The position numbers and the translations under genes are program-made. Positions 3,985 to 20,590 of a stretch of 64,000 nt of DNA are shown here, piece after piece. Below the pieces are notes generated by a model. The model had not been told where the DNA came from and searched no databases. It saw only the letters and a list, made by a program, of their open reading frames with translations. The DNA is from Patescibacteria group bacterium (GTDB taxonomy: Bacteria > Patescibacteriota > Gracilibacteria > BD1-5 > UBA6164), in assembly GCA_047637875.1 (NCBI GenBank), contig JBLJBH010000038.1, positions 1,969 through 65,968 on the forward strand. Reading direction: 5' to 3'. Numbering within the stretch: the first letter of the stretch is position 1; the number at the start of each line of letters is the position of its first letter.

Positions 3985-5814
3985 ACGAAATATTATGCCA
4001 TTATAGCTCAGTTGGTAGAGCGTTCCCATGGTAAGGGAGAGGTCACGGGTTCAATTCCCGTTAATGGCACCATTTATGTTAAAAAAAAAATCTAATCCCT
4101 CGTTAAGCTCTAATATAACAGACTTACGAGGGGTTATTTTTATGTTCAAAAACAGAATTTCATTAATTTTTCTCTTTTGAACATAAGAAGCCTTTTTATA
4201 GATAGCAGAGGCATTTCTTAGTAAATCAGTGATAACTTCATATTTAAATAAAATATCATTATTTTTTTGATTTACATTGTTTACTTCTGAATTTAAATCA
4301 TTTAAAACTTTTTCTATTTTCTTTTTTTCTTCTTGATAAATCGTTTCTTCATTTTCATCTCTCATTTTTCAAAGATTATTTTTAATAAAATCTTTTAATT
4401 TGTTTTCCATTTTTCAAATTTGTATATTTAACAACCTTTTTTGCTCTTTTATATCAAAATCCCCCCTATCAATTCTTTCTTTGATAAGGATTAACAAATT
4501 TCAATAATCTTCCTCTGTTATTTTTATTTTTTTCAGTAATTTTAAGATTTCTTTTTCTATTTCTTCGTATGTAATACTTAATTTTACTTGATTACAAGCA
4601 TATTTTATTTGATGTGGTTGAACTATATCTCAATAATCCAAATTATTATTTCCTGTTTGTTGTTTTAATTCTTTAAGTTTAGGAACAAATCTTTTTTCGA
4701 AATTAGGTAAAGTACAATTAAAATTATACTTTCCATCTTCTGTAATAAGCATTTCATTATGTATCGCCATTATATCATCAATATGTGGTTTTACTTTATT
4801 TTGTGTTCTTACCAATTTTCATTCTCAAACTCCTCATATTTGATATATAAGTTGAGTAAATTCATCTTCTGTAATAAGAGGTTCATAATAATCATTTTTT
4901 TCTCTTAAATCTACTTCCTGTTTTCAATAGACAAAAACTCAATAATAAAAAGAGTCTCTCCAAACTTGATAAAGTTTCGTATCCATAGCTTTTCACTCTC
5001 TTCATTTATCATTTTTAAATTCCCTTTTAAATCAATTATCATTTAAATATTCGGCAATTCTTTCATCACTTTCATTTTTTAATTTCATCATAAAAGCTTC
5101 TCTCATAAGAGGAAAATTAACAGGATGTGGCATATGATATCCTGTTTCCTCATCTATATAATACCCCATTTTATAAATTCAAACTGCTTTTCACTTTGCG
5201 TGAGCAGAATAACTTCATCTTGCACTATCTTCACTTAACTTATCTGAATATTGTTTTGAGAATACAAACCACATTCATAGCATCATTTTTCCACTTGCAT
5301 TATTTTCAAAATGGAAATTTGTATATTTTAAATCAACTTTTCATTCATCTACCAAATTGATAATCTCTCATCATTCAACCATATTTCTTGCTTGTCTATC
5401 TGGTGAATATGATAAAATTCATTTAATTTTTCAGGTTTTAATAAGTGAAATAAGTTTTAACCATTTTTTTCTTATTCCTGGTGTTTTTCAAGACTTTTGT
5501 TCTTCTATGATAAATAAATTTTGAGTTTTTTCTCTTAAAACTTCATCTTCGATAGTTTCAGTACTGGTTTTCTTTTTTAGTCAAAGAAATTCGTTTTCTT
5601 TAAAATCAAAATGAGAAAAAGTTGAGTTTTTTTCCATTAATTTGATATTATTAACCAAAGCAAAATTATAACAAACTCTAATTTGGTCTTCGATTGATTG
5701 CGTTTGTTTTCCTGATGCCTCATCTGTTGATTTTCTGACATAAATTACATATTCTATTTCTTCTATATTTTCTATTTTTTTGATTTTAGTTCTCGATGTT
5801 TTTGATATAACCAT
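3883..5814 (-). CDS. large serine recombinase (integrase of the element)
   Basis: N-terminus YVRKSTDEASGKQTQSIEDQ (catalytic Ser motif), SPDRQARN, then a recombinase and coiled-coil region. Recognisable body is 4054-5814 (587 aa), with many in-frame TGA. Under code 25 the frame reads through TGA at 4051-4053 and across the tRNA to TAA 3883-3885. This 56-codon tail is probably an integration artefact. Confidence 0.8.
3997..4072 (+). tRNA. tRNA-Thr (anticodon GGU), CCA encoded
   Basis: Hand-folded cloverleaf. Acceptor GCCATTA/TAATGGC, D stem GCTC/GAGC, anticodon stem TTCCC/GGGAG with loop ATGGTAA, T arm ACGGG-TTCAATT-CCCGT, discriminator A plus CCA. 76 nt. Confidence 0.9.
4051..4077. repeat. 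attL: left copy of the direct repeat (core 4053-4068 AATTCCCGTTAATGGC)
   Basis: 16/16 identical to 20566-20581. Identity is about 22/27 over 4051-4077 versus 20564-20590. Covers the T-arm and acceptor 3' strand of tRNA-Thr. Confidence 0.65.
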
Positions 5815-6510: not shown

Positions 6511-6522
6511 TATTTAAAACTG

Positions 6523-6550
6523 AAAAAGACCTAATTTCTAGGTCTTTTTT
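6523..6550. terminator. bidirectional hairpin terminator (end of the hsd operon and of 5941-6510)
   Basis: AGACCTA-ATTTC-TAGGTCT flanked by an A-run and a T-run. Confidence 0.75.
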
Positions 6551-6551
6551 G

Positions 6552-7976
6552 CTATTTTATAATCTTTCTCAATTCGCTAACCAAAACTTTTATCTCATCA
6601 TCATTTTTTTCTATATTTTCAATGATTTCGAGTGGACTTCTTAAATTTTCTTCTTTCGCTTTATTTGGATTTTTTGCTGATAAATCAAAGTCTTTTATAT
6701 CTTCAACTTTTACAATCCACGAATTTTCTCAAACAACTCTATTTTTTAGTAGATTTGGAATTTCTTTTATTTCATCGTAAGTGATAGGCTTGTTTTTTGT
6801 CAAAGTTCTTCCAAGATTTATTTCATAATACCAAATATCTTTTGTACTTCAATTTCTATCAAAAAATATTATGTTTGTTTTTACTCAGGCATAAGGTAAA
6901 AATACTCAGGCAGGAAGAGAAATAATACTATGTAAATTAAAATCTTCTAAAATCCATTTTTTAACATCTCAAAAAGCATTTCCTGTATTAAATAACACTC
7001 ATTCTGGAATTATAACTCAAACTTTTCATCAAAGTTTAACACTTTTAAGTATATGTTGTAAAAATAGTATTTCTGTTGCATTAGTTTTAATAGGAAAGTT
7101 TATTTGAACTTGTGATTTAATTATTCATCAAAATGGTGGATTTGCTAATACAACATCATATCTATCTTTTTCTTGAATATCTTTTATATTTTGTGCTAAT
7201 GTATCTGTTTTCTTTATATTTGGATTTGGAACTCAATGTAAAATCATATTCATCACTCACATAATGTATGCAAGTGGTGTTTTTTCATTTCAAAAAAAGC
7301 TATGTTTTTGTAAAAAATCTAGTTCTTTATCATTTTTTTCTTGTGCATTCATATGATTAAATGCTTCGATTAAAAATCAACAACTTCAAGTTGCAGGGTC
7401 ATAAACAGTTTGTCATATTTTAGGTTCTAAAACATCAACTACTATTTTAATAATACTTCTAGGAGTATAAAATTCTCAATTATTTCATCAAGCATTTCAC
7501 ATTTCTTTTAACAAATCTTCATATACTTGACTCAATTCAAATAAATCTTCTTGTTTTTGAAAACTTAAAGAATTAACTATATCAATAACTTCTCTTATAT
7601 TATTTCAATCTTCAATTCTATTATTAATAAAGAAAAATACTTCTCATATTTTATACTTTATTGAAGAAAAGTTTTCGGTTGAATTTCTAAAAGATTTTAA
7701 ATAAGGAAACAAAGAGTTATTAATAAAATCTTTTAAATCATCTCCATTAATATATCATTTTTGTAAATTAATCCAGTTAGCCCACCTATATTTTTCATCT
7801 AAAATATAAGTATAATTTTTTCAATCTAAAAATGCTTTATCATTTTCAGTAGTTTCAAAATCATCAAGGAATTTTAAAAATAATATCCAAGATATTTGTT
7901 CTGTATAGGACATTGCTCAAGATATTCCAGAGTCAGTACGAAGAACATCTTTAATTCTTGAAATTTGTTGTTTCAT
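6552..7976 (-). CDS. hsdM: type I restriction-modification system, DNA methyltransferase subunit M
   Basis: 474 aa. GEFYTPR, DPATGSCGFL and NPPFGG motifs. Confidence 0.93.
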
Positions 7977-7978
7977 AT

Positions 7979-8833
7979 TTATTTTTTAAAAGATAAAATA
8001 AAGTCATATATTTCTTCAAAATCAAACGAGAAATCATTATTCAAAACTGGTTTTAAGTCTGTCTCAACTTGTTTTTTTAGATTTTCAAAGTTTTCCTCTA
8101 GTGTATATTTATAATCAACTTCATTCAATTTTATTTCAAGTAATTTTTTAAACTCTTTATCTTCAAAATCAAAATTTCAAAATTGCTTTACATACCAAAT
8201 ATCGAAAAAATCTCTAATTGCTGGAACTCATCTTGTAAGACTTGCTCTTAATTTTTCAGCTATTGCTTCTTTTAAATCAATACAATTTATAAAATGAGCT
8301 CAAAAAATATTTTCTTCTAAAACAACATCTTTAAAAAATGATTTAATTTCTCCTGAAAAAGGTTCAATATATAATTTATTTTTAAGTGAAATATCTATTT
8401 TTATAGTTTGAGTTGAATTATCTATAATTGAGTTATATTCAAAAGTAAACATAGCAAGTTTATAACTATCATATTTTGTTCTTTCTTCTCTTAAATTTAT
8501 TCATAAGATTTTTAAATCTTCTATAAAATTATTTTCATATTCTTTAAGTAATGTTTTTCTAGCTCTTGCTCATAAATCAGTATTTAAAACAAAATCTAAA
8601 TCTTCTGAAAGTCTAAAATATGGAAAATATACTTTATTTAAGCAAGTTCATCATTTGAAAATTAAATCTGGATATTTTTCTCAAAATTTTACCAAAATAA
8701 TAGTCAGTAAAAAATCTTTTTCTACTTTATCTAAGGGAAAATCTTTATTTGATTTTTTTAAAATATTTAGATAATCTTCTTTTGATAAATTACTATATTC
8801 TTTTAAAAAATTATTAATTTTTTTAATATACAT
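7979..8833 (-). CDS. abiEii: nucleotidyltransferase AbiEii/AbiGii-family toxin
   Basis: 284 aa. FKGGTCLNKVYFPYFRLSEDLDF matches the hallmark of the DUF1814/AbiEii NTase family. Stop is 2 nt before the hsdM start. Verified codon by codon. Confidence 0.8.
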
Positions 8834-9413
8834 ACTTTTTTATTTTATTATTTACAGTAATTGAAGCATATTTTTTTGCTAATTTTTCTAATTTATTTTT
8901 ATCAACTCAATATGGAAGATTATTAAAATCTTTTCCTTCTTTTATCATCTGAATAAAAGCTCTTTCAATAGTCATAATTTTATATGGGTATCATTCAAAT
9001 TTTTCATTTTTTATACCATAAAAAAAACTTTCTCTTTGTTTTACGAATATAAATTTAGAATTTCAAATAATTTTTTTTCAAGATTTTTTAGTATTATAAA
9101 TAGTTTGCCATTCTGCTATTTGTTCAGTTAAACTATATCTATTATAAATTCATAATCATCCAAATACATATACATCATCTCACATATACAAATCTCAAAC
9201 TACAAAAGAATTTATAATTGCTTTTGTTTTATTGTTTATGTATATTTTTCACTTTTTTATAGGAGTTAAGAGTTCTAATTTGCATAAATCTTTAATAGAA
9301 TAGTTTGGAGCAAACTTATCTAATATTTTTTGTAAGTATCCACTTGTAATATATGGTTTTGAATATAATTCAAGTTTTTCTCTTATTATTGCTATTTTAT
9401 TTACTTGTTTCAT
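8823..9413 (-). CDS. abiEi: putative AbiEi-like antitoxin / wHTH protein
   Basis: 196 aa. Overlaps the abiEii start by 11 nt, as cognate pairs often do. The N-terminal region looks like a wHTH. The call rests mainly on position. Confidence 0.55.
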
Positions 9414-9477
9414 AAATATTTTGTGTGTAGTAAAGTGGTAATATTATATCTTTTCATACCACAAATGCAAATATTTT

Positions 9478-10674
9478 TTACTCTTTCACCAATCTTCATT
9501 CAAAAGCATCTTTTAATAAACTTTGTTTTAGTTCTTCTAATTCTTTTAATTGTAATTCATATTTTGTTTTTAATTCTTTGTTTTTTGCAAATACTTCATC
9601 TAAATATGAAACAATTTCTTTTTGTTTTTCTAGTGGTGGAAGTGGGATTTGAAAACTTCTTAAATATCATAATCAAACAAATTTTTGAGTTGCTCAATTT
9701 GCTTCATTTAACATCTTTTTGATAACTAAATCTGATAATAAATAATACTTTAAAAACTCCATTATAATAATTTCATTTTTTTTCTTGAATAATGCCACAT
9801 TTTTAATTGCAAAATTTGGTTCAAAATTTACAATTGTAGGATTTCATATTGTTCAAATCATAGCAAACAACAAATCTCATTTATCAACTTTACTTCTTTT
9901 ATTTATATTTATATAATCATTTTCACTTATTAGTTTTACATTTGTTAAATCTATTGAATTATCTATCAAATTTTTTGAGGTCACAAGAGGAAATCATTCT
10001 TTAAAAAACTTTGGAGAGTCGTGAGTTCAATCTCTAACATCAAATATTTCTCATAATTTCTTCATTTCATACTCTCACTCACTAAAAACTTTTTCTAAAA
10101 CACTTTTGTTTAATTCTTCAAGATTTTTGAGATTTTCTTTTGTGAGATTTATGTTTTTATCTATGTTTTCAAAAGCTGAGTCTAGTTTTTGAACTATGAG
10201 TTTTTGGGTTGAAAGTGGTGGAAGTGGGATTGGAATTTGTTCAACTTCTTTGATTTGCAAATTTGCTATTCAAGTTGTTTTCTTGGAAAATATTCTTACT
10301 GTTTTTTGGGTTTTATCTGAATTATAAAAATAATAAAAATAATTATAATCTATAAAATCTTTTAATGGTCTAAAACAAGATATAAATCATCATAATGTTG
10401 CTTTATATCATAGATTTTCTATTAAACAGCATTTTCATAATAATTCTAAACTATTTGCACTAGAAATAAGTAAATCTCAATCTTGTAAAAACTTTTCTTC
10501 ATTTTTTACTATTGATTTATCAATATAAATTATATCACTCTCATCTAATTTTGTTTGGATATTTTTAGTTCTAAAACAAGCTAATCAAGTTTTTACATCC
10601 AAAATATCAGATGGTTTATAAGTTACTCATCTTATAGTTTTTACTATTTCTCAAAGTTTTTTTGTTGGGTACAT
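9478..10674 (-). CDS. hsdS: type I restriction-modification system, specificity subunit S
   Basis: 398 aa. Two target-recognition halves, each followed by the conserved IPLPPL..Q..I...LD helix region. In frame with track ORF 10075-10260. Confidence 0.9.
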
Positions 10675-10681
10675 AATTATT

Positions 10682-11653
10682 TTATTTCATTGTAATTAAA
10701 AATTCATATAATTTAATTCAAGAGTCTATTCATTTTGCTCATAAATTTTTATCTATCTTATTTAAATTTTTATGAACTATATTATTTCTTATTCATCTTA
10801 AAATGTTTATATTGATTAAATCTTCTTTATATTTTAAATAATTATTTTTTTCTAAAATCAATGGTAAATATGTATTTAATAAAAGATTAAAGGTTAATTC
10901 TAGCTCTAAATCTTTTATTTTTTTATTACTTAATCATATTTCATTAAATTTATTTTTAATAAACTCTCAAAATAATATTTCCAAAATAATACTTGCTTCT
11001 AATAATGAAAATCTATCTCAGAATAGAACTCTTGACTTTAATTTAATTAATTTCAAAATATTTTCCTCTTCTAAAATATTCATATTAGTTACTTTTCGCA
11101 TCTTTTCCCACTTTTCTTTTGTTAACAATACATCATCAGAATAAATAGAATTTATAGTTTTTTTATCTTTTGATATTTTTTTTATCTCTTCAAATTTTAT
11201 TTTTCTAAAATCAATTCAATCATTTGAAATTTCTAATTTATATCAATCAATTAAAGAAAAACTATTATTATTTAAAAAACTTCAAATATATCAGGTTCTA
11301 AAATTTAAATATTCAAAGTTTCATATTCTATAAAATAATAATGAAATTTTTTTTATAACTTTTTCATAGATTAAATATATTTTTTTTCAAGTTTCAATAG
11401 TGATATTTTCACCTAATAGTTCATTATATAAATTATCATCTCAATTTATAGTTATAATCATAAATTGAGATGGTGATAAATCAATATAACCATTTACAGG
11501 TTTTTCTTCTTTTTTTATAAAATAATTGACTTCATAATTATCTAAATTTATTTTCAAAGGATTTTTTTCTAATTCATCCGACCAATATGAAGTTCAAAAA
11601 TCGCACAATCATTCAAGAGATGGAATATTTATTCTTAAATATATTTTTTTCAT
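10682..11653 (-). CDS. hypothetical protein with a C-terminal HEPN-like R-x4-H motif
   Basis: 323 aa, verified codon by codon. C-terminal helical region ends with LRGIRNNIVHKN (RNNIVH = Rx4H). Lies 7 nt upstream of hsdS. Confidence 0.55.
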
Positions 11654-11670: not shown

Positions 11671-13608
11671 TTAATCTGTAATAAAGTAGTGTTTATCTTT
11701 TTTAAATAAGTATAAAAATATAATATCATTAATTTTTTTTCTAAAAATAAAATTTTTTAGATGAACTCATAAAATAATATATAAGATAAGAAAGAAAAAA
11801 GATATAAAATATAAAATTCATTCCCATAAATCCCAATTTTTTAATATAGGTGGTATAATGAAAATAACAAATAAACTACACAAAATAATAAAAATAATAA
11901 ATGAAATAACCCACGATAATATTCAAGCAATTTTTATATTTTTATTTTTTAACTTTTCCAATATATCTTTATTTTTTCTTTGTTTTTCTTCTTCTAATTT
12001 TTTTTCAATTTCAGATTTATGTCATTTTTTTACTTCCTCTAAAATCTCATTATGAATTGTAATTTCTAAATTCTTTTTAGATTTATCAATATTTGTAAAA
12101 ATAATATTTTTATCTATTTTTTCTCAAACTGAAATTGTTAAAAGTTCATTTTTTATTTCATTAGAAGAAATCAAGAGTGCAAAATCTTCATCTGTAATTT
12201 CTTTTTTTTCAACCATTTCATAACACAAAGCATAAAAGTTATTCCAAACATCTTTATTTATTAATCAATATGAAGTTAGTCATACAAAAACTGTTTCTAA
12301 TGGAATATCACTAGACCAATCAGGTTTTTTTAACCATAGGTAATTACTAAGATAATCTGGCAATATTATATTTGGTATTTTTTTGAAAAAACTTTTTTCA
12401 TTTATTTTACAATCAGCATTAAATAATCTTTTATCAGAGGTTAAAAAAATATATTTTGATTTTTCTAATAATCTTGGTGAAGAACTTCACCTTAAAAATT
12501 TAATAGACTCAATTGCATAAATATCGTGTTTTTTTGAATGGCGGGGTTTATGATTTATTTCTTCCTCATAATCATCTTCATTATAATCTAATTTACTAGT
12601 TTTTTGTTCATAAATCTCTACTCAAAATTTTTGAATAAGTATATTTTCAATTTTATATGTTAATTGTAATATATCTGATGTACCATATCATAAATTTTTG
12701 AAATTTTGGTAAATAGAGGCAACATTATATCATTTAAAATATTTATCTTTTTCAGTTTGGAAATTCTCTAAAACATTTATTGTCTCATCAATAGTAAATG
12801 TAAAAACTTTTACAGATATTCCTCTTTTTTGCATTAATTCTAATAATTCAAACGATGATTTTTCAAGTTCTTTTCAATGTCATCAAATTAATGAGAAAAT
12901 AATATTAGTATCTAAAAAAACTGTTAATGAATTTAAATTATACTCATTATTCACATCTTTAATTAAATTTTCTTTTGTAATTAAAGAACAAAGTAAGGCT
13001 CAATATACAATATTTTTAATTAGATTTTTAAATTCTAAATTATTATTAAGTTGATTTACAACAAATCTTGAAATTCAAACCTTTAAAACATTATCAACTC
13101 AATCAAGTTTTCAATTGATATAACTTTTACTAAAAGGAGAAAAAAATTCAAAAAAATTATAAAAATTATTATTTATAATATCTTGTAATGTTTTATATAT
13201 TATATCATCTTCATATCTAATATTATTATCTTTATATATATATAATCTAATAGACTCAAAAAGTCTTTCTAACTCAAAATATATATCCTTATTTAAATCA
13301 ATTGAGTCAATTTTCTCTTTTTTTCATTTCTCTGTTAATTGAATTATATCAGATTTTTCGTCATAAATAATTTTATTTTGTTTATCAAGTTTTTTTAATA
13401 TGTCTTTAATTGTGAAATTTGGTATATTTAAATAATACCTATTCTTTATATCATTTTGAATTTTTTTTAATTTAGTTCAATTAATTATATCAATAGAATT
13501 CATAATAAAAGGAAAAAAAGTTTCAAGATAACTTTTCTTTCATTCATACAGTGTTTGCATCATTGAATAAGTATAAAAATCTCTATATCAAATCTTACTA
13601 TTAGACAT
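11671..13608 (-). CDS. PIN-like domain protein with two C-terminal transmembrane helices
   Basis: 645 aa, verified codon by codon. TVFLDTNIIFSLIG (PIN strand 1 Asp) and YIFLTSDKRLF (PIN T-x-D). C-terminal hydrophobic segments ILSWVISFIIFIILCSLFVIFII and ILYFISFFFLILYIIL. Confidence 0.55.
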
Positions 13609-13637: not shown

Positions 13638-15962
13638 CTATTTAACATATAAACTCTTTTGTAACTCATAATAAGCATTTTTTAACTCCTGCATTCACCC
13701 GAAAGTTTCTGCAATTTCCCTTGGTTGACCTTGGTTAAAGAGAGCAATTTTACTTGCTAGTCCATCTTTTCTAAATTCTAAAATTCCATTTTTTACATAA
13801 AGTCCCAACAAAAACTCTAAAAATTCTTTCGCTTTTAGACTTTGGTATTTTTCCACTGTTTCCTCTCAATACTGAGACCTTTCAGCCCTAAATTTAATAT
13901 CACTGTTAAAAGATATATGAGCCAAAATATCAAAAATATCAGACTTTTCAGCTTCAAACATCTTTTTTAAATCTTCCAGTTGCTCACTATCAAGTCAAAT
14001 ATTTGCTAAATTTTGAAGTAATTCTTCTCTGGTTTCAGGATTAGACCATAACATCCTGAGTTGATGTTCATCCTGGTAAATACTTGGTAAATCTCCAATA
14101 ATTCTTTTTAAAAAATCATTTGAATTTAAATGTTTCCCAGTCGTTGGGTCAAGATATCTCGTCTCAATATCAATAACTTTTACTTCTCTATTTGGTGCGA
14201 GTTTTACCACTAATCTTTCTTTTTTTTCAAAATCATTTTCTTTCGTATCTGTTGGGAAATCTTTTTTGGTATTTGGTCTGTATTCTTCTTTTTTTACTTC
14301 TACTTCATTAGATAAATCCTCTTCTGGTCATCCATCCCAAAGTTCATCACTAAAATCATTAGTAGCTCCAACAAAATCATAAATAGTGAAATAATCTTTT
14401 CCATCAAAAAGTCTTGTTCCTCTTCAAACAATTTGTTTGTACTCTACAATACTTCCAATATTTCTAACGAGTATAATATTTCTTACATTGAGTGCATCCA
14501 CTCAGGTAGTCAGCATTTGAGAGCTTGTTAAAATCACTGGAATATCTTTATCGTTGTCCTGAAATCTTTCGAGATATTTTCTTCATATTTCTCCTTCGTT
14601 ACTCGTCACACGAACACAATAATCTGGGTCTTTTACTTCTTTATACTTATTTATACTGTCTCTAATTCTCAGTGCGTGACCTTGGTCTACACAGAAAATA
14701 ATAGTTTTATCCATTTTGTTTATTTGTTGTAATATCGTTTGAGCAATTAAATCTGACCTTTCATCGATTATAATCTCTCTTTCCATATCTTTTGTGTAAT
14801 ACACTTCTTTTTTTATTTCTCACGAAACGACTTTATCTCAACTATTTAAAACTAATTCATCAATATTAAGTTTAATTCTTTTGATTTTAAACGGAGTCAG
14901 AAATCAGTCATCTATTCAAGTTTTTAGTGAATATTCATAAATTGGATTTCAAAAATACTTGTAAGTATCAACATTATCATTTCTTTTTGGTGTTGCCGTA
15001 AGTCCGATATGAACAGCAGAGTCAAAATATTTCAAAATCTCAGCCCAATTTCCGTCTTCTCTAGCTCATCATCTATGACATTCATCAATTATGATAGCAT
15101 CAAAAAAATCCCTATCATATCTATTGTAATAGGCTTCTAGTGTTTCACTAGGGTCATCTTCTGATACTCATCCTGCCAAAGCTTGATAAATAGCAAAGAA
15201 AATATTTGCGTTCGTTGGAACTTTTCATCATCTTTTTTTGATTTCAGTTCCGTTGATTTTGATGATATCTTTTTCCAAAGGATTAAAAGTATTCATTGCT
15301 TGGTCTACAAGGATATTTCTATCAGCCAAAAATAAAATTCTTGGTCTTCTCACTCATATACCATCTTTCGACCATCTTGCATTGAATAGTTTATAAACCG
15401 TTTGAAATGCAATAACGGTTTTACCAGTTCCAGTTGCAAGAGTGAGTAAAATCCTATTTTTTCAGTCTCAAATAGACTCCATTATCTTATTTATAGCAAT
15501 CTCTTGATAATATCTTGGTTTTCTTTCTGATAAATAAAATGGTTCTTGGAGTAAAGTTTCTTTTGTTTGATTGATTTCAGAAAATACTTTATTATAGAGT
15601 TCTTCTGGTGTTGGATAATTATCGATGTAATCACCTTTTCCAGTTTTTAGGTCAAATTCATAGGTTCTTTTTCAGTTTGATGAATATACAAATCTTAGAT
15701 TTAAAATACTCCCATATTCTTTTACTTGCTCTAAACCTTCTGTTGGTTCTAAACCTACCTTTTTAGCTTCAATAATCGCTAATTTTACTCATTTATAAGT
15801 CAAAACATAGTCAGCAAATTTTTGCTTTCCTCTTTTTCCTCAAAGCCCAATCCTTCCATCAGTAAAAGAATGTTCTCTGATGATATTGATATCATTCCAA
15901 CCATTATTTTTTAGTTGTGGGTCTATATAATTTGCTCTTGTATCGCTTTCTGAATATGACAT
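13638..15962 (-). CDS. hsdR: type I restriction-modification system, endonuclease subunit R
   Basis: 774 aa. LATGTGKT, IIIDECHRG, GLTATPKR and QIVGRGTR helicase motifs, plus an N-terminal nuclease region. In frame with track ORFs 13995-14210 and 14583-14804. Confidence 0.93.
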
Positions 15963-16046
15963 TTTTTATTAATTAAACAATATGAAATATATTTTGTTTA
16001 TTATAAGAAAAAAGTATTTTTTTCAAAATAAATTGATTTTTGGCAT

Positions 16047-16088
16047 AAAAAAGACCTCTAAGAATGTATCTCAGAGGTCTTTTTTTTA
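16047..16088. terminator. bidirectional hairpin terminator upstream of hsdR
   Basis: AAGACCTCT..AGAGGTCTT with an A-run on one side and a T7 run on the other. Confidence 0.7.
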
Positions 16089-16260
16089 CTTATTGGAGTT
16101 GGAAATATACCATCTTACCATATATTCGATGGTTTTACTTCTTTGAAGCCTAGAATAATATGGTCAATATATCTTTTTACTCTCACTATCAATCTTTCAC
16201 AATAAATTTTCGTCCACATTTAAACTAATCTTTTTCTTAATTCAAAACATAATATAAAAA

Positions 16261-16479
16261 TTATAAGGTAAAATTGTCATTTATTGAGATTTTCTCTCCG
16301 TTCCTTAATCAGGAAACTTTGTAATTTATCACAATTTTTCCATTTTGATTGAGTTTACTCACCAAATTGATATTAAAACTTCACAAGTAAAAATATTTAC
16401 TTATATCTATTAAAATCTTATTCACTTCCTCTTTAGTCAAGACTCTATTGGTTCTTGCAACATTATTCATATTTCCCAT
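16261..16479 (-). CDS. hypothetical small protein (72 aa)
   Basis: ATG (complement of 16477-16479) to TAA with two in-frame TGA. No motif recognised. Confidence 0.35.
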
Positions 16480-16597
16480 AATTATAAAAATTAAAAAATA
16501 AAAAGCTTTCGCAAAAAGAATACACACTTCCATTTTCGGTTCTTTTTTTATGATTTATCTATGTTTTTAATTCAAAAATACCAAATTAGGTATCAGA

Positions 16598-16716
16598 TTA
16601 GGTATAAATGTAGTATTACATTTATATTATTAAATATCGGTATAAAAATAGGTATTGAGTTAAATGATGAACTTAAGTGGTGACATCGGTGCAAATGTAG
16701 TATTACATTAATATTA
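16598..16716. repeat. two ~30-bp direct repeats with an identical 17-bp core AAATGTAGTATTACATT, plus GGTAT iterons
   Basis: Cores at 16606-16622 and 16693-16709 (87 bp apart). Each core is itself an inverted repeat, AATGTA-N4-TACATT. (A/C)GGTAT recurs four times between 16587 and 16655. Confidence 0.55.
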
Positions 16717-16860
16717 CAGTGATACTAATTTTGAAAAACTTTTGATTTTTTTTTAATATAAATTAAATTTAGTCACTTAAAAAAAGAAAATAAAAACGAA
16801 AAAAGTTTCTTTTTAATTTTTATTAAAATATATAAAAATTTAATATTTTCATTCTTCTCA

Positions 16861-16900
16861 AAAGACCTACTTAGAAAAATCTCAAAGTAGGTTTTTTTTT
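16861..16900 (+). terminator. orphan plus-strand hairpin with T9 run upstream of the rep gene
   Basis: ACCTACTT..AAGTAGGT followed by TTTTTTTTT. No plus-strand ORF precedes it. Confidence 0.6.
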
Positions 16901-17046
16901 GGTTATCAATTTTTTCATAAAACTACCAATAATAATAAAAAGCTCTATTTAATAAGTAAAACTAGGATTTTAAAAAATACGATATTCAGTGTGATACCAA
17001 ATATGTGTGTTGTTTCTTGTAGTTTATTTTTTAACCACATATAATT

Positions 17047-18804
17047 ATGAAAAACTGCAAGAAAGGTGATGCTACTTTAAGTATCGAAAATAATGCTAAC
17101 TACATTACTGAAAGAAGAATAAATCCTGAAGATTGTATATTATTTGTCAAAGATATGCAAACTGATGAATTTAGTTATATCGAGGAAAAATATATTACCT
17201 CTCAGATTGAGAATAATAATTTATATTTTCTTGTTAATTGATATTTGTTATGAAAAAGAAATGAGTCAAAATTGAGAAAAATATATGCTCTATGATTTGA
17301 TGTTGATACTTTAAAAGAATGAATAAGTGATAACGAATTATTCACTAGATTAGAAGAAATCGAAGAAGAATATTGATTAAGAGCTCATATAATCAATAAG
17401 ACTGGATGATGATATCATATTTATTATTTAATGGAAAAAACACCATATTTACCATTTAAAAAAGAATTTGATAAAATTTACGAAAGATTAATGAAGGATT
17501 TATCTGCTGATGAGGATTTTAGCTGGAAGGTAGGAATATTAAAAGTAGTTTGATGATATGATTTTAGAAGAAAAACTTGGATTATAAATATAAGAAATGA
17601 GTTTCATAATAATTATAAAATTACTGATTTTAATAAAATTACTGGAGATGAAGTATTTAAAAAATATGAAAAGATGAATTTTTCAGATGAATTTAGAAAA
17701 ATAGATGAGGAAGAGTTGAATTTGAAAAAAAGAATTAACAGTTATGTTTATAAAATAAATGATATTCCTTTTCCTATTATTTTAGAAAAATTAAATCAAA
17801 TATGATTTAAAATTACTATAATAAATAATAGAGTTCATATTGAAGGGAATGAATGACACGCAAAAGCATTATATTATCACGATAATACTGAAAGAGTTGT
17901 TGATTATGCGAGAAAAAATAGAATAAAAATATGAGAAACATCAAGAGGCTGAAATTATGGATTTTTATATTATATTTTTTCTATAGCAGACTCATTGAAA
18001 AACAAGGATTTGGAAGTTATTAAAGATAAAAAACTTATAAAAGATGAAATCAGGAAATTTGTTTGAAAATATTTTAATATCTACTATAGAAATCCAGATA
18101 ACTATATCAATACAAACAAGTTGATTTACAATGAATTTTTAAATGGAAAAGTAAGTTTTGATGAAATGGATAAAAGTTTTTTACTTGAAAATAATATCAT
18201 CAATAGTAATTATAAACTTTCTAGTATTTCAAAATTTGTATTATTAAATATTTTGAAGTGAAGCGAAATAGATATGAGCTGATATTTTAAGAATAAAACT
18301 ATTTATGAATTATTATCTTCCTCATCATTAAAGGAAAGTAATATAAAAAAACAAAATAAAAAATATAAATTAGTATTATTATGTTTATCAAAAATATATA
18401 AGGATATTTGCACTATCTCAAAAGATACTGAGAAAATAAGAGTTTTTTTGATTTCTGATTTAATTGAAGAAAATTATAGATTTTCATTCACTTTACTTAA
18501 AAATTACTTTAAACTTCAAAAATTTGAAAAATATATTTATAGAGGTATTTATATCTGATTTATTAATAACAAAAAACTAAATATTGAGAAACTAGATTTA
18601 TATTTTTACTTATTAAATCGTATTATTAATAAAACTGAAAAAATTAGCCTTGAGAGAGTATTAAAAGAGTTTTGATGACAAACATATCTAACAAATAAAA
18701 GTCTTTCTAAAAGTAATATTATTCGTGATATAAAGATATTTAAAAGCTTTCTAACGACTACTAATAGAAAGATAGATATTTGAAAAGATATGATTGTTTT
18801 TTAA
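17047..18804 (+). CDS. putative replication protein with an N-terminal AEP primase-polymerase-like domain
   Basis: 585 aa, verified codon by codon. ALGFDVD (D-x-D motif I) and KTGGGYHIYYL (G-x-G-x-H motif II). Confidence 0.6.
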
Positions 18805-18997
18805 AAAAAAGAAAGTGGAAATTAGTTTATATTTTTAGATAAAAAAGTAGAAAAATGTTTATATTATTTTACTTGATTATCCTCTTATTATAGACAGAAG
18901 TAAGAGAACTATTTATTCCAATATAAAAGAAAGAGGTTGATATATTTATAAATATCACTATTACTTATATAACATTTTATATTCTAATTAAAAAATT

Positions 18998-19459
18998 ATG
19001 ACAAAAATAATTGATATTATTGAAACAAATACATTTAAGGAGTTAAAAGAAAGAAAAATAAATTGAGAAGAATGAATTATATTTTATGATGACGAAAATA
19101 TATACTCTCCAGATGATGAATTAATTGAATGGCTAATAATTAATCCTGAAAATCCTGAACGCTATACATATCGTTATATATTAAAAAGCTCAATTCTCGG
19201 AGAAGAAATAGAAAAAGCTACTACTAAAAAATATTGAAAATATTGTAGCTGGAATAGTAACTTATATTCTGAAACGAAAGATAAAATTTACAAAGTATTT
19301 TATGATGATGAATTATATGAAAATGAAAAGGAAAATGAATATATAGAAATTATAAAAAATGCTAATAAAAAATTGGAAGATATAAAATATGCATATTCGT
19401 ATGAATGAAGTGAGACTTATAATATAGATTATTATTTTAAATTAAGTGATTTTTTATAA
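18998..19459 (+). CDS. hypothetical protein (153 aa)
   Basis: Continuous frame with TGA=Gly. No motif recognised. Confidence 0.55.
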
Positions 19460-19538
19460 TAAAAACTTAGCGACTCATAAATAAACAGTGTGTTAATAAA
19501 TGTAGACTTCTACATTTTATTTACTAACTTTTTATATT

Positions 19539-19997
19539 ATGAGTAAAAAAGACATTACTATTACTGAAATAACAGAAAATTACTTTTTACGTGAGAATAA
19601 AAAAATTAAGATTGTATTCAGCTATGACTACTTTCAAGACTTTATCCAAAGAAATTGACTTGAGGAAATTTTCCTAAAAAAACTTCATTTAGAATGATTT
19701 GACTTTGACATTGTAAAAATATCAAACCTAGATTTTAATCTTGATTTGGATAATACCGATTTTATTAATAAATTAAGAAATTATAAAGACCACTATATCT
19801 CAGAATGATTACTCTACTTGGGGAATGATAAGTCAAAAAGATATTGATTTTTCTTTTTTCCTGACTATCTAAAAAACTGAGAAATGAAAAATGATTTTTT
19901 AAAAATAAAAAGCACTGAAAATATTGATTTAACTGAATATGCAACTTTTAATTGATTGTATAACAGGGCTGGTGTTGTAATAGCATTAAAGATATAA
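19539..19997 (+). CDS. hypothetical protein (152 aa)
   Basis: Continuous frame with TGA=Gly. No motif recognised. Confidence 0.55.
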
Positions 19998-20563: not shown

Positions 20564-20590
20564 TTAATTCCCGTTAATGGCTTCATTTTA
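20564..20590. repeat. attR: right copy of the tRNA-Thr 3'-end repeat (core 20566-20581)
   Basis: AATTCCCGTTAATGGC is identical to 4053-4068. Upstream AGGGCGTTAATT is a degenerate copy of the T arm. No tRNA 5' half is present. Confidence 0.65.

Follow-up and report, generated by a model that had tools for sequence, protein, structure and literature searches.

The window analysed here is a 64,000-nucleotide (nt) stretch of contig JBLJBH010000038.1 from a Patescibacteria group bacterium (Gracilibacteria, BD1-5). Its minus strand carries a seven-gene type I restriction-modification (R-M) operon in the order hsdR, X645, p336, hsdS, AbiEi-like, AbiEii and hsdM, with gaps of 29, 17, 7, 64, −11 and 2 nt between consecutive genes. 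The second gene encodes a protein of 645 amino acids (aa), here called X645, that is predicted to combine a winged helix, a PIN-like nuclease core and a C-terminal membrane hairpin in one polypeptide. Its coding sequence starts with an ATG at 13608 and ends with a TAA at 11673-11671. An earlier note, made by a model from the DNA letters and a list of open reading frames (ORFs), had described a PIN-like protein with two C-terminal transmembrane helices at this position; embedding in a type I R-M operon, the most informative feature of the locus, was absent from it.

Under the standard bacterial code, an ORF listing of the 9-17 kb region gave no ORF longer than 73 aa and X645 was not seen. That view, in which no gene lies at 11671..13608, was dropped when the 22 in-frame TGA codons, which the frame contains in addition to its single terminal TAA, were recognised as sense codons. 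ORF coverage of the window, the GC content of which is 22-30%, rose from 0.19 with table 11 to 1.23 with table 4, values that count both strands, include overlapping and antisense frames and do not represent a coding fraction. In the neighbouring HsdM protein, TGA fills the Gly positions of the conserved NPPFGG and DPATGSCGF motifs, and TGA was therefore assigned to Gly; a reading of TGA as Trp was rejected because the HsdM catalytic motifs need Gly at these sites. We conclude that codon usage in these motifs indicates genetic code 25 (TGA = Gly) for the window, the code type of Gracilibacteria and Absconditabacteria.

The ORF that the earlier note had placed here proved to be real, on the minus strand under code 25, and to have thousands of full-length homologues. 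The fragment “SLIG” quoted in that note implies that it too was read with code 25. The public protein collection carries the genes of the window in code 4 translation, with W at every TGA, and tools that use table 11 all misread the window. X645 is hidden unless code 25 is used, and recoded genomes conceal such families from standard pipelines.

Predicted domains and active site of X645

A structural model of X645 was computed with AlphaFold2 from a 137-sequence alignment. The query was the entry P0001, which is X645 with W at the TGA sites, a difference at 22 residues (W for G) that may make the model slightly less accurate. The mean predicted local distance difference test (pLDDT) score was 87.7 and the predicted template modelling score (pTM) was 0.77. 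The model comprises an N-terminal winged helix, a helical linker for which no family match was found, a PIN-like α/β core, a helical extension, a lysine/glutamate-rich stalk, two transmembrane helices and a basic tail (Table 1). Strands and helices alternate over aa 229-430, in keeping with the three-layer α/β/α fold and parallel sheet of PIN-like proteins. Residues 500-590 form one unbroken 90-residue helix that consists of the stalk followed by the first transmembrane helix (TM1).

When the model was compared with the PDB by Foldseek, the best compact matches were VapC-type PIN domains, namely, PAE0151 (2fe1) and Mycobacterium tuberculosis VapC (7vwo_A), with a probability of 1.00 and target-normalised template modelling (TM) scores of 0.60-0.61. 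Utp24, AF1683 and HARP RNase P ranked below the VapC-type PINs, and the DNA-acting nucleases FEN1 and Exo1 far lower still, with probabilities of ≤0.33. Thus, the check by structure prediction that the earlier note had proposed returned PIN domains and no non-PIN placement. Matches to O-methyltransferases were dropped, as they had TM scores of 0.15-0.17 and root mean square deviations of 16-20 Å and reflected a generic winged helix plus Rossmann-like arrangement. Among viral models in BFVD, the sole high-probability match was a phage “PIN like domain” protein of 366 aa (probability 0.99).

Sequence profiles gave sub-threshold matches to the same fold. PIN_3 matched member P0004 with an E value of 6e-4 (21.1 bits, with a cut-off of 27), a PIN-type profile matched member P0007 with an E value of 0.14, and the family consensus matched PIN (PF01850) at 0.012 and PIN_3 at 0.019. 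For the consensus, P0004 and P0007 alike, positions 1-53 of the PIN and PIN_3 profiles aligned in a consistent register from the FLDTN strand through the FTIDE helix. An hhalign comparison of the family with a single VapC sequence (template Neff 1) gave no significant match. Membership in the DUF4935-type PIN family, which the earlier note had listed for checking, was not supported, as PF16289 was absent from the matches at E ≤ 10 for the consensus core and 8 members and at E ≤ 1 for 17 members.

Conservation was assessed in 155 representatives with ≤50% mutual identity. The two PIN signatures that the earlier note had read from the sequence occur in the order that it gave, TVFLDTNIIFSLIG at aa 229-242 and YIFLTSDKRLF at aa 386-396, and the intervening acidic stretches correspond to ELEKSSFELLE (aa 247-257) and TIDETI (aa 272-277). 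The distance between the signatures needed correction, with 159 aa from D233 to D392 rather than about 165. That note had named three of the four acidic positions, D233, E275 and D392, and all three were conserved in the homologues; the fourth is D362 of the “HD” motif (Table 1). Other conserved positions were N235 (99%), E254 (95%), T272 (98%), H361 (98%), R373 (99%), L395 (99%), W425 (99%), P429 (97%) and W455 (99%). By topological position in the model, D233-E275-D362-D392 corresponds to the canonical PIN D-E-D-D tetrad, and the level of conservation points to strong purifying selection on the tetrad across the family.

The core resembles that of VapC-type PIN RNases (PAE0151, 2fe1; M. tuberculosis VapC, 7vwo; Shigella VapC, 3tnd), its best structural matches, in having an Asp at the end of strand 1, a Glu after strand 2, an Asp at a helix N terminus and a T/S-x-D after strand 4, and the X645 pattern HDxxAIE...FLTSDxxL parallels FDQMIAGHA...IIVTNNTREF of VapC. 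VapC is a soluble toxin of ~130 aa with an upstream antitoxin, whereas X645 has 645 aa, four extra modules and a helical insert of ~60 aa in the core, between the E275 helix and strand 3. Neighbours of the family varied by locus, and no conserved small upstream gene was found at the loci examined, such that X645 does not fall within VapBC. The DUF4935/PIN_12 proteins (PF16289; PMC5499597) share with X645 a VapC-group core in which strand 2 is followed by a long helical insertion and strand 3 by additional helices; they are usually monocistronic and of unknown function (PMC5499597), have ~350 aa and are without the N-terminal winged helix, stalk and transmembrane hairpin of X645. Predicted structure and catalytic residues support placement of the core in the PIN-like superfamily, VapC group, and we consider a PIN-like fold with a functional active site highly probable.

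The N-terminal domain was matched both by profiles and by structure. The family consensus matched HTH_45 with an E value of 1e-5 (25.9 bits, with a gathering cut-off of 25.5) and PadR with an E value of 0.006; Foldseek matched LmrR, a PadR-like factor and F93 (probabilities of 0.91-0.97, target-normalised TM scores of 0.53-0.65), and profile searches of PDB sequences matched F93 (E = 0.004), S19e and Sso10a. The winged helix-turn-helix-like domain that the earlier note had suspected is borne out by the HTH_45 match and by the structural matches. We conclude that the N terminus of X645 is, as modelled, a PadR-like winged helix of the predicted DNA-binding type.

The C terminus contains two hydrophobic segments, for which 19-aa Kyte-Doolittle means reached 3.4 (aa 561-585) and 2.6 (aa 597-615), and these follow a lysine/glutamate-rich stretch at aa ~500-555, in agreement with the earlier description. 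Of the 155 members, 153 had at least one hydrophobic 19-mer (mean hydropathy ≥1.6) within 130 residues of the C terminus, and most have two. The sequences of the transmembrane segments were poorly conserved, and only hydrophobicity was kept. The numbers of lysine plus arginine residues before TM1, in the loop and after the second transmembrane helix (TM2) were 5, 1 and 7 in X645 and averaged 4.2, 1.3 and 4.0 in the 127 two-helix members. Because the charges follow a positive-inside pattern, the segments are predicted to form an N-in/C-in hairpin with the nuclease domain in the cytoplasm, where it would stand on a stalk of ~55 residues. Membrane anchoring of X645 is very probable. Weak matches to DUF2207_C and 60KD_IMP were dismissed, as they were driven by composition and covered the stalk and transmembrane region only. 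One member, P0016, has no segment at the hydropathy threshold and may be a soluble variant.

Membrane-tethered PIN proteins had been called unusual in the earlier note, which was an overstatement, as the YacL-like PIN-TRAM proteins of COG4956 also attach a PIN domain to the membrane (PMC5499597). COG4956 proteins have four N-terminal transmembrane helices and a C-terminal TRAM domain, whereas X645 has two C-terminal helices, a winged helix and a mobile, defence-type context. The hydrophobic segments of X645 are restricted to its last ~90 aa, and no TRAM match was found, which places it outside COG4956.

Family distribution and restriction-modification context

When 1.84 billion cluster representatives (50%-identity clusters) were searched exhaustively with a profile, 4,814 matched at E ≤ 1e-3, of which 1,844 also reached E ≤ 1e-30, and the best 150 matches were nearly all full-length, at 610-690 aa. 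Word-indexed searches had returned ~19 clusters of 580-660 aa, none with a Pfam domain, and the view of a tiny family was dropped when the exhaustive hidden Markov model search gave thousands. We conclude that X645 belongs to a large family with, as far as profile matches indicate, a fixed architecture. X645 itself had no significant match when scanned against Pfam, NCBIfam, PADLOC and PHROGs, and no family in PADLOC-DB v2, PDC candidates included, matched it at E ≤ 1. Every public name retrieved for a member was “hypothetical protein,” and most members were nameless.

Members from reference genomes were all from metagenome-assembled genomes. Their hosts included Syntrophomonadaceae and other Firmicutes, Stahlbacteria, Acidobacteriota, Saccharibacteria, Nomurabacteria, Ignavibacteriales, Pirellulales and Zixibacteria, as well as the archaeal Bathyarchaeia and a Methanofastidiosa archaeon. 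Such patchy spread over phyla is typical of horizontally mobile genes. A phage-encoded origin was unsupported, as no full-length family member was found in a viral contig collection with the patterns used. The family is almost wholly confined to uncultured lineages, including bacteria of the candidate phyla radiation (CPR) and archaea, the defence repertoires of which are poorly known, and screens based on Escherichia coli or RefSeq genomes could not have revealed it. At one locus (L017, 6001-8652), the table 11 reading of the member ORF gives 883 aa, an excess of ~240 aa over the usual length, and a Zeta-toxin gene follows it; the excess may stem from a fusion at the C terminus or from an error in gene calling.

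Genomic contexts were sampled with a 22-sequence subfamily alignment (A4), and the loci are biased towards that subfamily. The family gene, X, was embedded among type I hsd genes in the window, in L096 and in L019, where the order is HsdM, Fic, AbiJ_NTD4, X, HsdS, AAA_14 and HsdR. In L021, it was adjacent to a partial HsdS gene and not flanked on both sides. A type II arrangement of N6/N4 methyltransferase, X, DpnII/BanI-like restriction endonuclease and methyltransferase was found at L006-L010, L012, L016, L023, L037, L101 and L105, with R-M proteins that were 73-86% identical across loci. At L002, X, here encoding P0016, lies between a methyltransferase and an MwoI-like endonuclease, and at L028, it lies beside a BglII-like endonuclease, with a C5-methyltransferase on the opposite strand, an instance of adjacency only. 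Thus, location between subunit genes, recurrent and in different systems, was observed in the window, L019, L096 and the type II loci. Start and stop codons often overlapped, and spacing was tight, in the R-M operons of the family. Because at least four unrelated R-M kinds are involved, a single inherited operon cannot explain the association.

The commonest immediate neighbour was an N6_N4 DNA methylase, which accounted for 8 of the 68 neighbours at 62 non-redundant metagenome loci. An R-M or AAA_15-type neighbour was recognised at 11 of the 50 loci that had any neighbour, and at the others the gene was solitary or beside housekeeping genes. Further neighbours were AbiJ_NTD4, AAA_15/21 ATPases, Zeta toxin, a TCAD9 kinase-like protein, SIR2_2 and a PLD-SNF2 helicase. 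Overall, the family gene was found repeatedly within R-M systems, defence islands and mobile elements. A census of PIN domains in 2017 found PIN genes near type I systems and none in type II contexts (PMC5499597); the present family supplies PIN-like genes in type II R-M contexts. In published work, a gene that lies inside an R-M, BREX or Hma system usually has a role in defence (bioRxiv 10.1101/2024.01.29.577857; PMC11411939). We conclude that the R-M association of the family is strong but not obligate.

The same hsd operon is present in a related recoded genome (L015), where the slot of X645 (8156-9995) is occupied by two unrelated genes. One encodes 275 aa with a weak HEPN match (E = 5.5e-4), and the other encodes a multi-transmembrane protein of 343 aa with a weak 8xMP match (E = 1.4e-4). 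As an unrelated pair fills the position in L015, the slot of X645 appears to be one for exchangeable cargo. The pair, a putative RNase and a membrane component, is possibly a two-gene functional analogue of X645.

These contexts bear on two explanations in which X645 is not a defence effector. One is that X645 regulates or organises the R-M system, such that a tethered, C-protein-like winged helix controls R-M expression or holds R-M complexes at the membrane and the PIN-like domain is vestigial or processes operon mRNA. The PadR-like winged helix would suit such a role, as would the stable place of the gene between methyltransferase and endonuclease genes in a conserved type II operon and the overlapping start and stop codons, which suggest translational coupling. 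However, most members lie beside no R-M gene, such that their function cannot depend on R-M, and the family occurs in four unrelated R-M types with different promoters. Moreover, the catalytic tetrad appears to be under selection, and the hsd operon of L015 does without X. We consider regulation of R-M very improbable.

The other explanation, which we regard as the most improbable of those weighed here, is that X645 is a housekeeping membrane enzyme of RNA processing, like the PIN-TRAM proteins YacL/COG4956, and that its R-M neighbours reflect hitch-hiking on mobile islands. Membrane-bound PIN proteins with unknown housekeeping roles do exist (PMC5499597), and several loci of the family have housekeeping neighbours. 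Against this, the spread of the family is extremely patchy, extending over Firmicutes, CPR bacteria, Acidobacteriota, Planctomycetes, Bathyarchaeia and Methanofastidiosa, and R-M and defence genes are over-represented among its neighbours. In addition, X645 lies on a putative integrative island, is replaced by unrelated cargo in a close relative and contains no TRAM or other RNA-binding module. We conclude that a defence role for X645 is likely and that the family is a good candidate for a bacterial defence module that has not yet been described.

Proposed function and its rivals

We propose, with slightly less than even confidence, that X645 is a single-polypeptide, membrane-anchored PIN-like nuclease that serves as an accessory anti-phage or anti-plasmid module inside an R-M operon. 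X645 probably forms a dimer, as is typical of PIN domains, PadR winged helices and coiled coils. It would be kept in check on the cytoplasmic side of the membrane, and on infection, its metal-binding tetrad would cut nucleic acid. RNA is favoured as the substrate, given that the close structural neighbours are without exception RNases. Cells would stop growing or undergo abortive infection, a back-up to the DNA-targeting R-M system with which X645 is co-transcribed. The membrane tether may hold a potentially toxic nuclease off bulk cellular substrates, and the long stalk helix may couple activation to membrane events. This triggered-RNase mechanism, drawn by analogy, is possible, and we advance it tentatively.

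The separate elements of the proposal have precedents. Single-protein PIN defences have been validated (PMC13092281), and in SNIPE, membrane tethering prevents nuclease autoimmunity (PMC13190303). DS-3 and DS-5 (PMC13092281) and HEC-03 (bioRxiv 10.1101/2024.01.29.577857), with which X645 was compared by description, act through a PIN nuclease effector whose catalytic residues are essential. DS-3, like X645, consists of one protein with no antitoxin, and HEC-03 needs an ABC ATPase partner; none of the three is described as membrane anchored or as bearing a winged helix. The anticodon nucleases PrrC and RloC, TgvAB (PMC11411939) and the HEC/PDC candidates (bioRxiv 10.1101/2024.01.29.577857) resemble X645 in being encoded by an effector gene, of the RNase type or another, that sits between subunit genes of a type I R-M operon as a second layer of defence. 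PrrC and RloC are soluble ABC-ATPase-HEPN-like proteins almost exclusive to type I systems, whereas the X645 family is PIN-like and membrane bound, occurs in three type II kinds too and is often solitary. The parts of X645, namely, the PIN nuclease, winged helix, transmembrane anchor and R-M embedding, are familiar, and their combination is new and unannotated.

Several observations weigh against the proposal. For the fold, all Foldseek E values were ≥0.06 (0.06-0.1 for the top PIN matches), no PIN-clan sequence profile matched at its curated cut-off, and profile searches of PDB sequences returned winged-helix matches only and no PIN. For the active site, X645 has K, K, N and P where the family has H405, T410, E413 and D417 (each ≥91% conserved), and the recoded relatives P0002, P0003 and P0018 have the same four substitutions, with the Asp moved to position 418; given the losses of H405, E413 and D417, the recoded clade may differ in activity. 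For the context, R-M linkage was found at only ~20-25% of the sampled loci, many members lie beside housekeeping genes, and we infer the defence role from enrichment rather than from an obligate association. Likewise, we infer by analogy that X645 is a metal-dependent nuclease at the membrane that adds a layer of defence, its substrate and trigger included. Finally, the winged helix suggests binding of double-stranded DNA, which fits a DNA target better than RNA.

A DNA target is the basis of the main rival, in which X645 acts like SNIPE in direct defence: the anchored nuclease would cut invading DNA at its point of entry, the winged helix would bind the duplex, confinement at the membrane, rather than sequence or methylation, would mark the DNA as non-self, and cells would survive. 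SNIPE (PD-lambda-1) likewise unites a membrane anchor, a DNA-binding domain and a nuclease in one protein, with poorly conserved transmembrane sequence (PMC13190303). The constitutive anchor, DNA-binding-type winged helix and nuclease of X645 would follow the same logic (PMC13190303), its poorly conserved transmembrane sequences are as expected for a mere anchor, and it shares operons with DNA-targeting R-M systems. The PIN-like superfamily also includes DNA nucleases, and FEN1 and Exo1 were present, low in the Foldseek list. However, the closest structural neighbours are all VapC-group RNases, and FEN-like matches did not exceed a probability of 0.33. SNIPE is built from a GIY-YIG nuclease and DUF4041 with an N-terminal anchor and is not reported as R-M embedded; the domains of X645 are unrelated, with no PADLOC or Pfam match to those of SNIPE, which puts X645 outside that system. 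Moreover, the anchor of X645 is C-terminal with a loop of 11 aa, and it has no periplasmic or adapter region with which to touch the injection apparatus. We consider SNIPE-like cutting of DNA unlikely and retain the triggered RNase as the preferred mechanism.

The hairpin could alternatively be the effector itself. Oligomerisation of the stalk would permeabilise the membrane and cause abortive infection, and the PIN-like domain would be mainly a sensor of nucleic acid. Two-transmembrane effectors are common in abortive-infection systems such as CBASS, Pycsar and retrons, the long stalk helix of X645 is continuous with TM1, and the alternative cargo in L015 includes a multi-transmembrane protein. 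Near-perfect conservation of the D-E-D-D tetrad together with H361 and R373 argues for catalysis over binding, the transmembrane segments conserve hydrophobicity only, and P0016, although embedded in an R-M operon, is without a strong transmembrane helix. An effector hairpin is thus improbable, and catalysis by an anchored nuclease is favoured.

An extension of the anchored-nuclease proposal, which we consider decidedly unlikely, is that the stalk passes a signal such as phage DNA injection or envelope perturbation from the hairpin to the catalytic domain, that X645 co-operates physically with R-M and that the family is a widespread, unrecognised class of immune effector. Such co-operation might hold restriction complexes at the site of DNA entry or might fire the nuclease when restriction is blocked. 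If so, the family would parallel SNIPE or PrrC with a PIN nuclease and would serve both type I and type II R-M, and it would provide the first functional link between a PIN-like nuclease and type II R-M.

Should the defence role hold, X645 would represent a large unannotated defence family of at least 1,844 clusters at 50% identity. It would provide a PIN-based example of the recent idea that nucleases in immunity are controlled by membrane confinement, and it would show that “embedded” accessory defences occur in type II as well as type I R-M operons.

Other features of the operon and the putative island

The remaining genes of the operon were assigned by motifs, by Pfam and PADLOC matches and by comparison with L015, where the hsdR orthologue has ResIII, SWI2_SNF2 and EcoEI_R_C matches (Table 1). 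AbiEii matched Pfam with an E value of 8e-28 and PADLOC with an E value of 1e-37, and AbiEi matched PADLOC with an E value of 1e-10. The type I operon of the window carries at least two independent cargo modules, of which the AbiE toxin-antitoxin pair is one. A scan for promoters gave matches that were no commoner than in shuffled sequence, the DNA being AT-rich.

Table 1. Positions in the window of X645, its predicted domains and residues, and neighbouring features
Feature	Position	Strand	Description	Basis
X645 coding sequence	11671..13608	minus	645 aa and a TAA stop; frame open only in code 25, with 22 TGA = Gly	
PadR-like winged helix (predicted)	13303..13584	minus	aa 9-102	AlphaFold2, Foldseek, PDB profile matches, HTH_45
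Helical linker domain (predicted)	12952..13299	minus	aa 104-219	AlphaFold2 helices 104-128, 134-156, 173-210, 213-219
PIN-like alpha/beta core (predicted)	12319..12936	minus	aa 225-430	AlphaFold2 strands 229-232, 265-269, 331-333, 386-389; Foldseek; Pfam
D233 codon	12910..12912	minus	FLDTN, end of strand 1; putative metal ligand	conserved 100% (155 homologues)
E275 codon	12784..12786	minus	FTIDE, helix after strand 2	conserved 99%
D362 codon	12523..12525	minus	HDxxAIE, helix N terminus	conserved 100%
D392 codon	12433..12435	minus	FLTSD, T/S-x-D after strand 4	conserved 97%
Substituted stretch	12319-12400	minus	aa ~405-418	alignment
Helical extension past core	12136..12300	minus	aa 437-491; holds family-invariant W455, F458	
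K/E-rich stalk helix	11944..12111	minus	aa 500-555; probable coiled coil	continuous with TM1 in AlphaFold2
Transmembrane helix 1 (predicted)	11854..11928	minus	aa 561-585	hydropathy, flank charges
Transmembrane helix 2 (predicted)	11764..11820	minus	aa 597-615; behind 11-aa loop	hydropathy, flank charges
Basic C-terminal tail helix	11674..11763	minus	aa 616-645; 7 K/R; predicted cytoplasmic	AlphaFold2, charges
hsdR	13638..15962	minus	774 aa; first operon gene, 29 nt upstream of X645	helicase motifs
p336	10682..11653	minus	323 aa; 17 nt downstream of X645	translation; no family match
hsdS	9478..10674	minus	398 aa	L015 orthologue has Methylase_S
AbiEi-like and AbiEii	7979..9413	minus	196 aa and 284 aa; between hsdS and hsdM	Pfam, PADLOC
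hsdM	6552..7976	minus	474 aa; last operon gene	translation
Hairpin terminator	6521-6551		after hsdM	sequence
Large serine recombinase	5826 to ~4080	minus	adjoins tRNA-Thr(GGT)	
tRNA-Thr(GGT)	3997-4072		beside large serine recombinase	

The p336 protein has an RNNIVH motif (R-x4-H, HEPN-like) at aa 289-294 within an all-helical C-terminal half, and its AlphaFold2 model, with a pLDDT of 48.7, was too poor to judge identity as a HEPN RNase. One homologue was found outside its own species, 72% identical and at the same place in the L015 operon. An obligate partnership of p336 with X645 was rejected, as the two occur together only in the same species (L001) and p336 occurs without X in L015.

The 3′ end of the tRNA-Thr gene, AATTCCCGTTAATGGC, recurs as an exact 16-bp copy at 20566-20581, with a chance expectation of ~3e-4. 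The pair of sequences suggests attL and attR sites of an integrative island of ~16.5 kb that would contain the whole R-M/AbiE/X645 operon. On the plus strand, within the putative island, three ORFs of 589, 155 and 163 aa lie at 17035-19997. The 589-aa ORF, the only one of the three that was scanned, gave no significant Pfam match, and the three may be replication or mobility genes of the island. In a non-coding, AT-rich stretch of ~1.07 kb (15966-17034) between these ORFs and hsdR, the motif (A)AATGTAGTATTACAT(T) occurs twice in nearly identical form, with GGT ahead of each copy, and the two copies may act as operators of the island or as its sites of replication or recombination.

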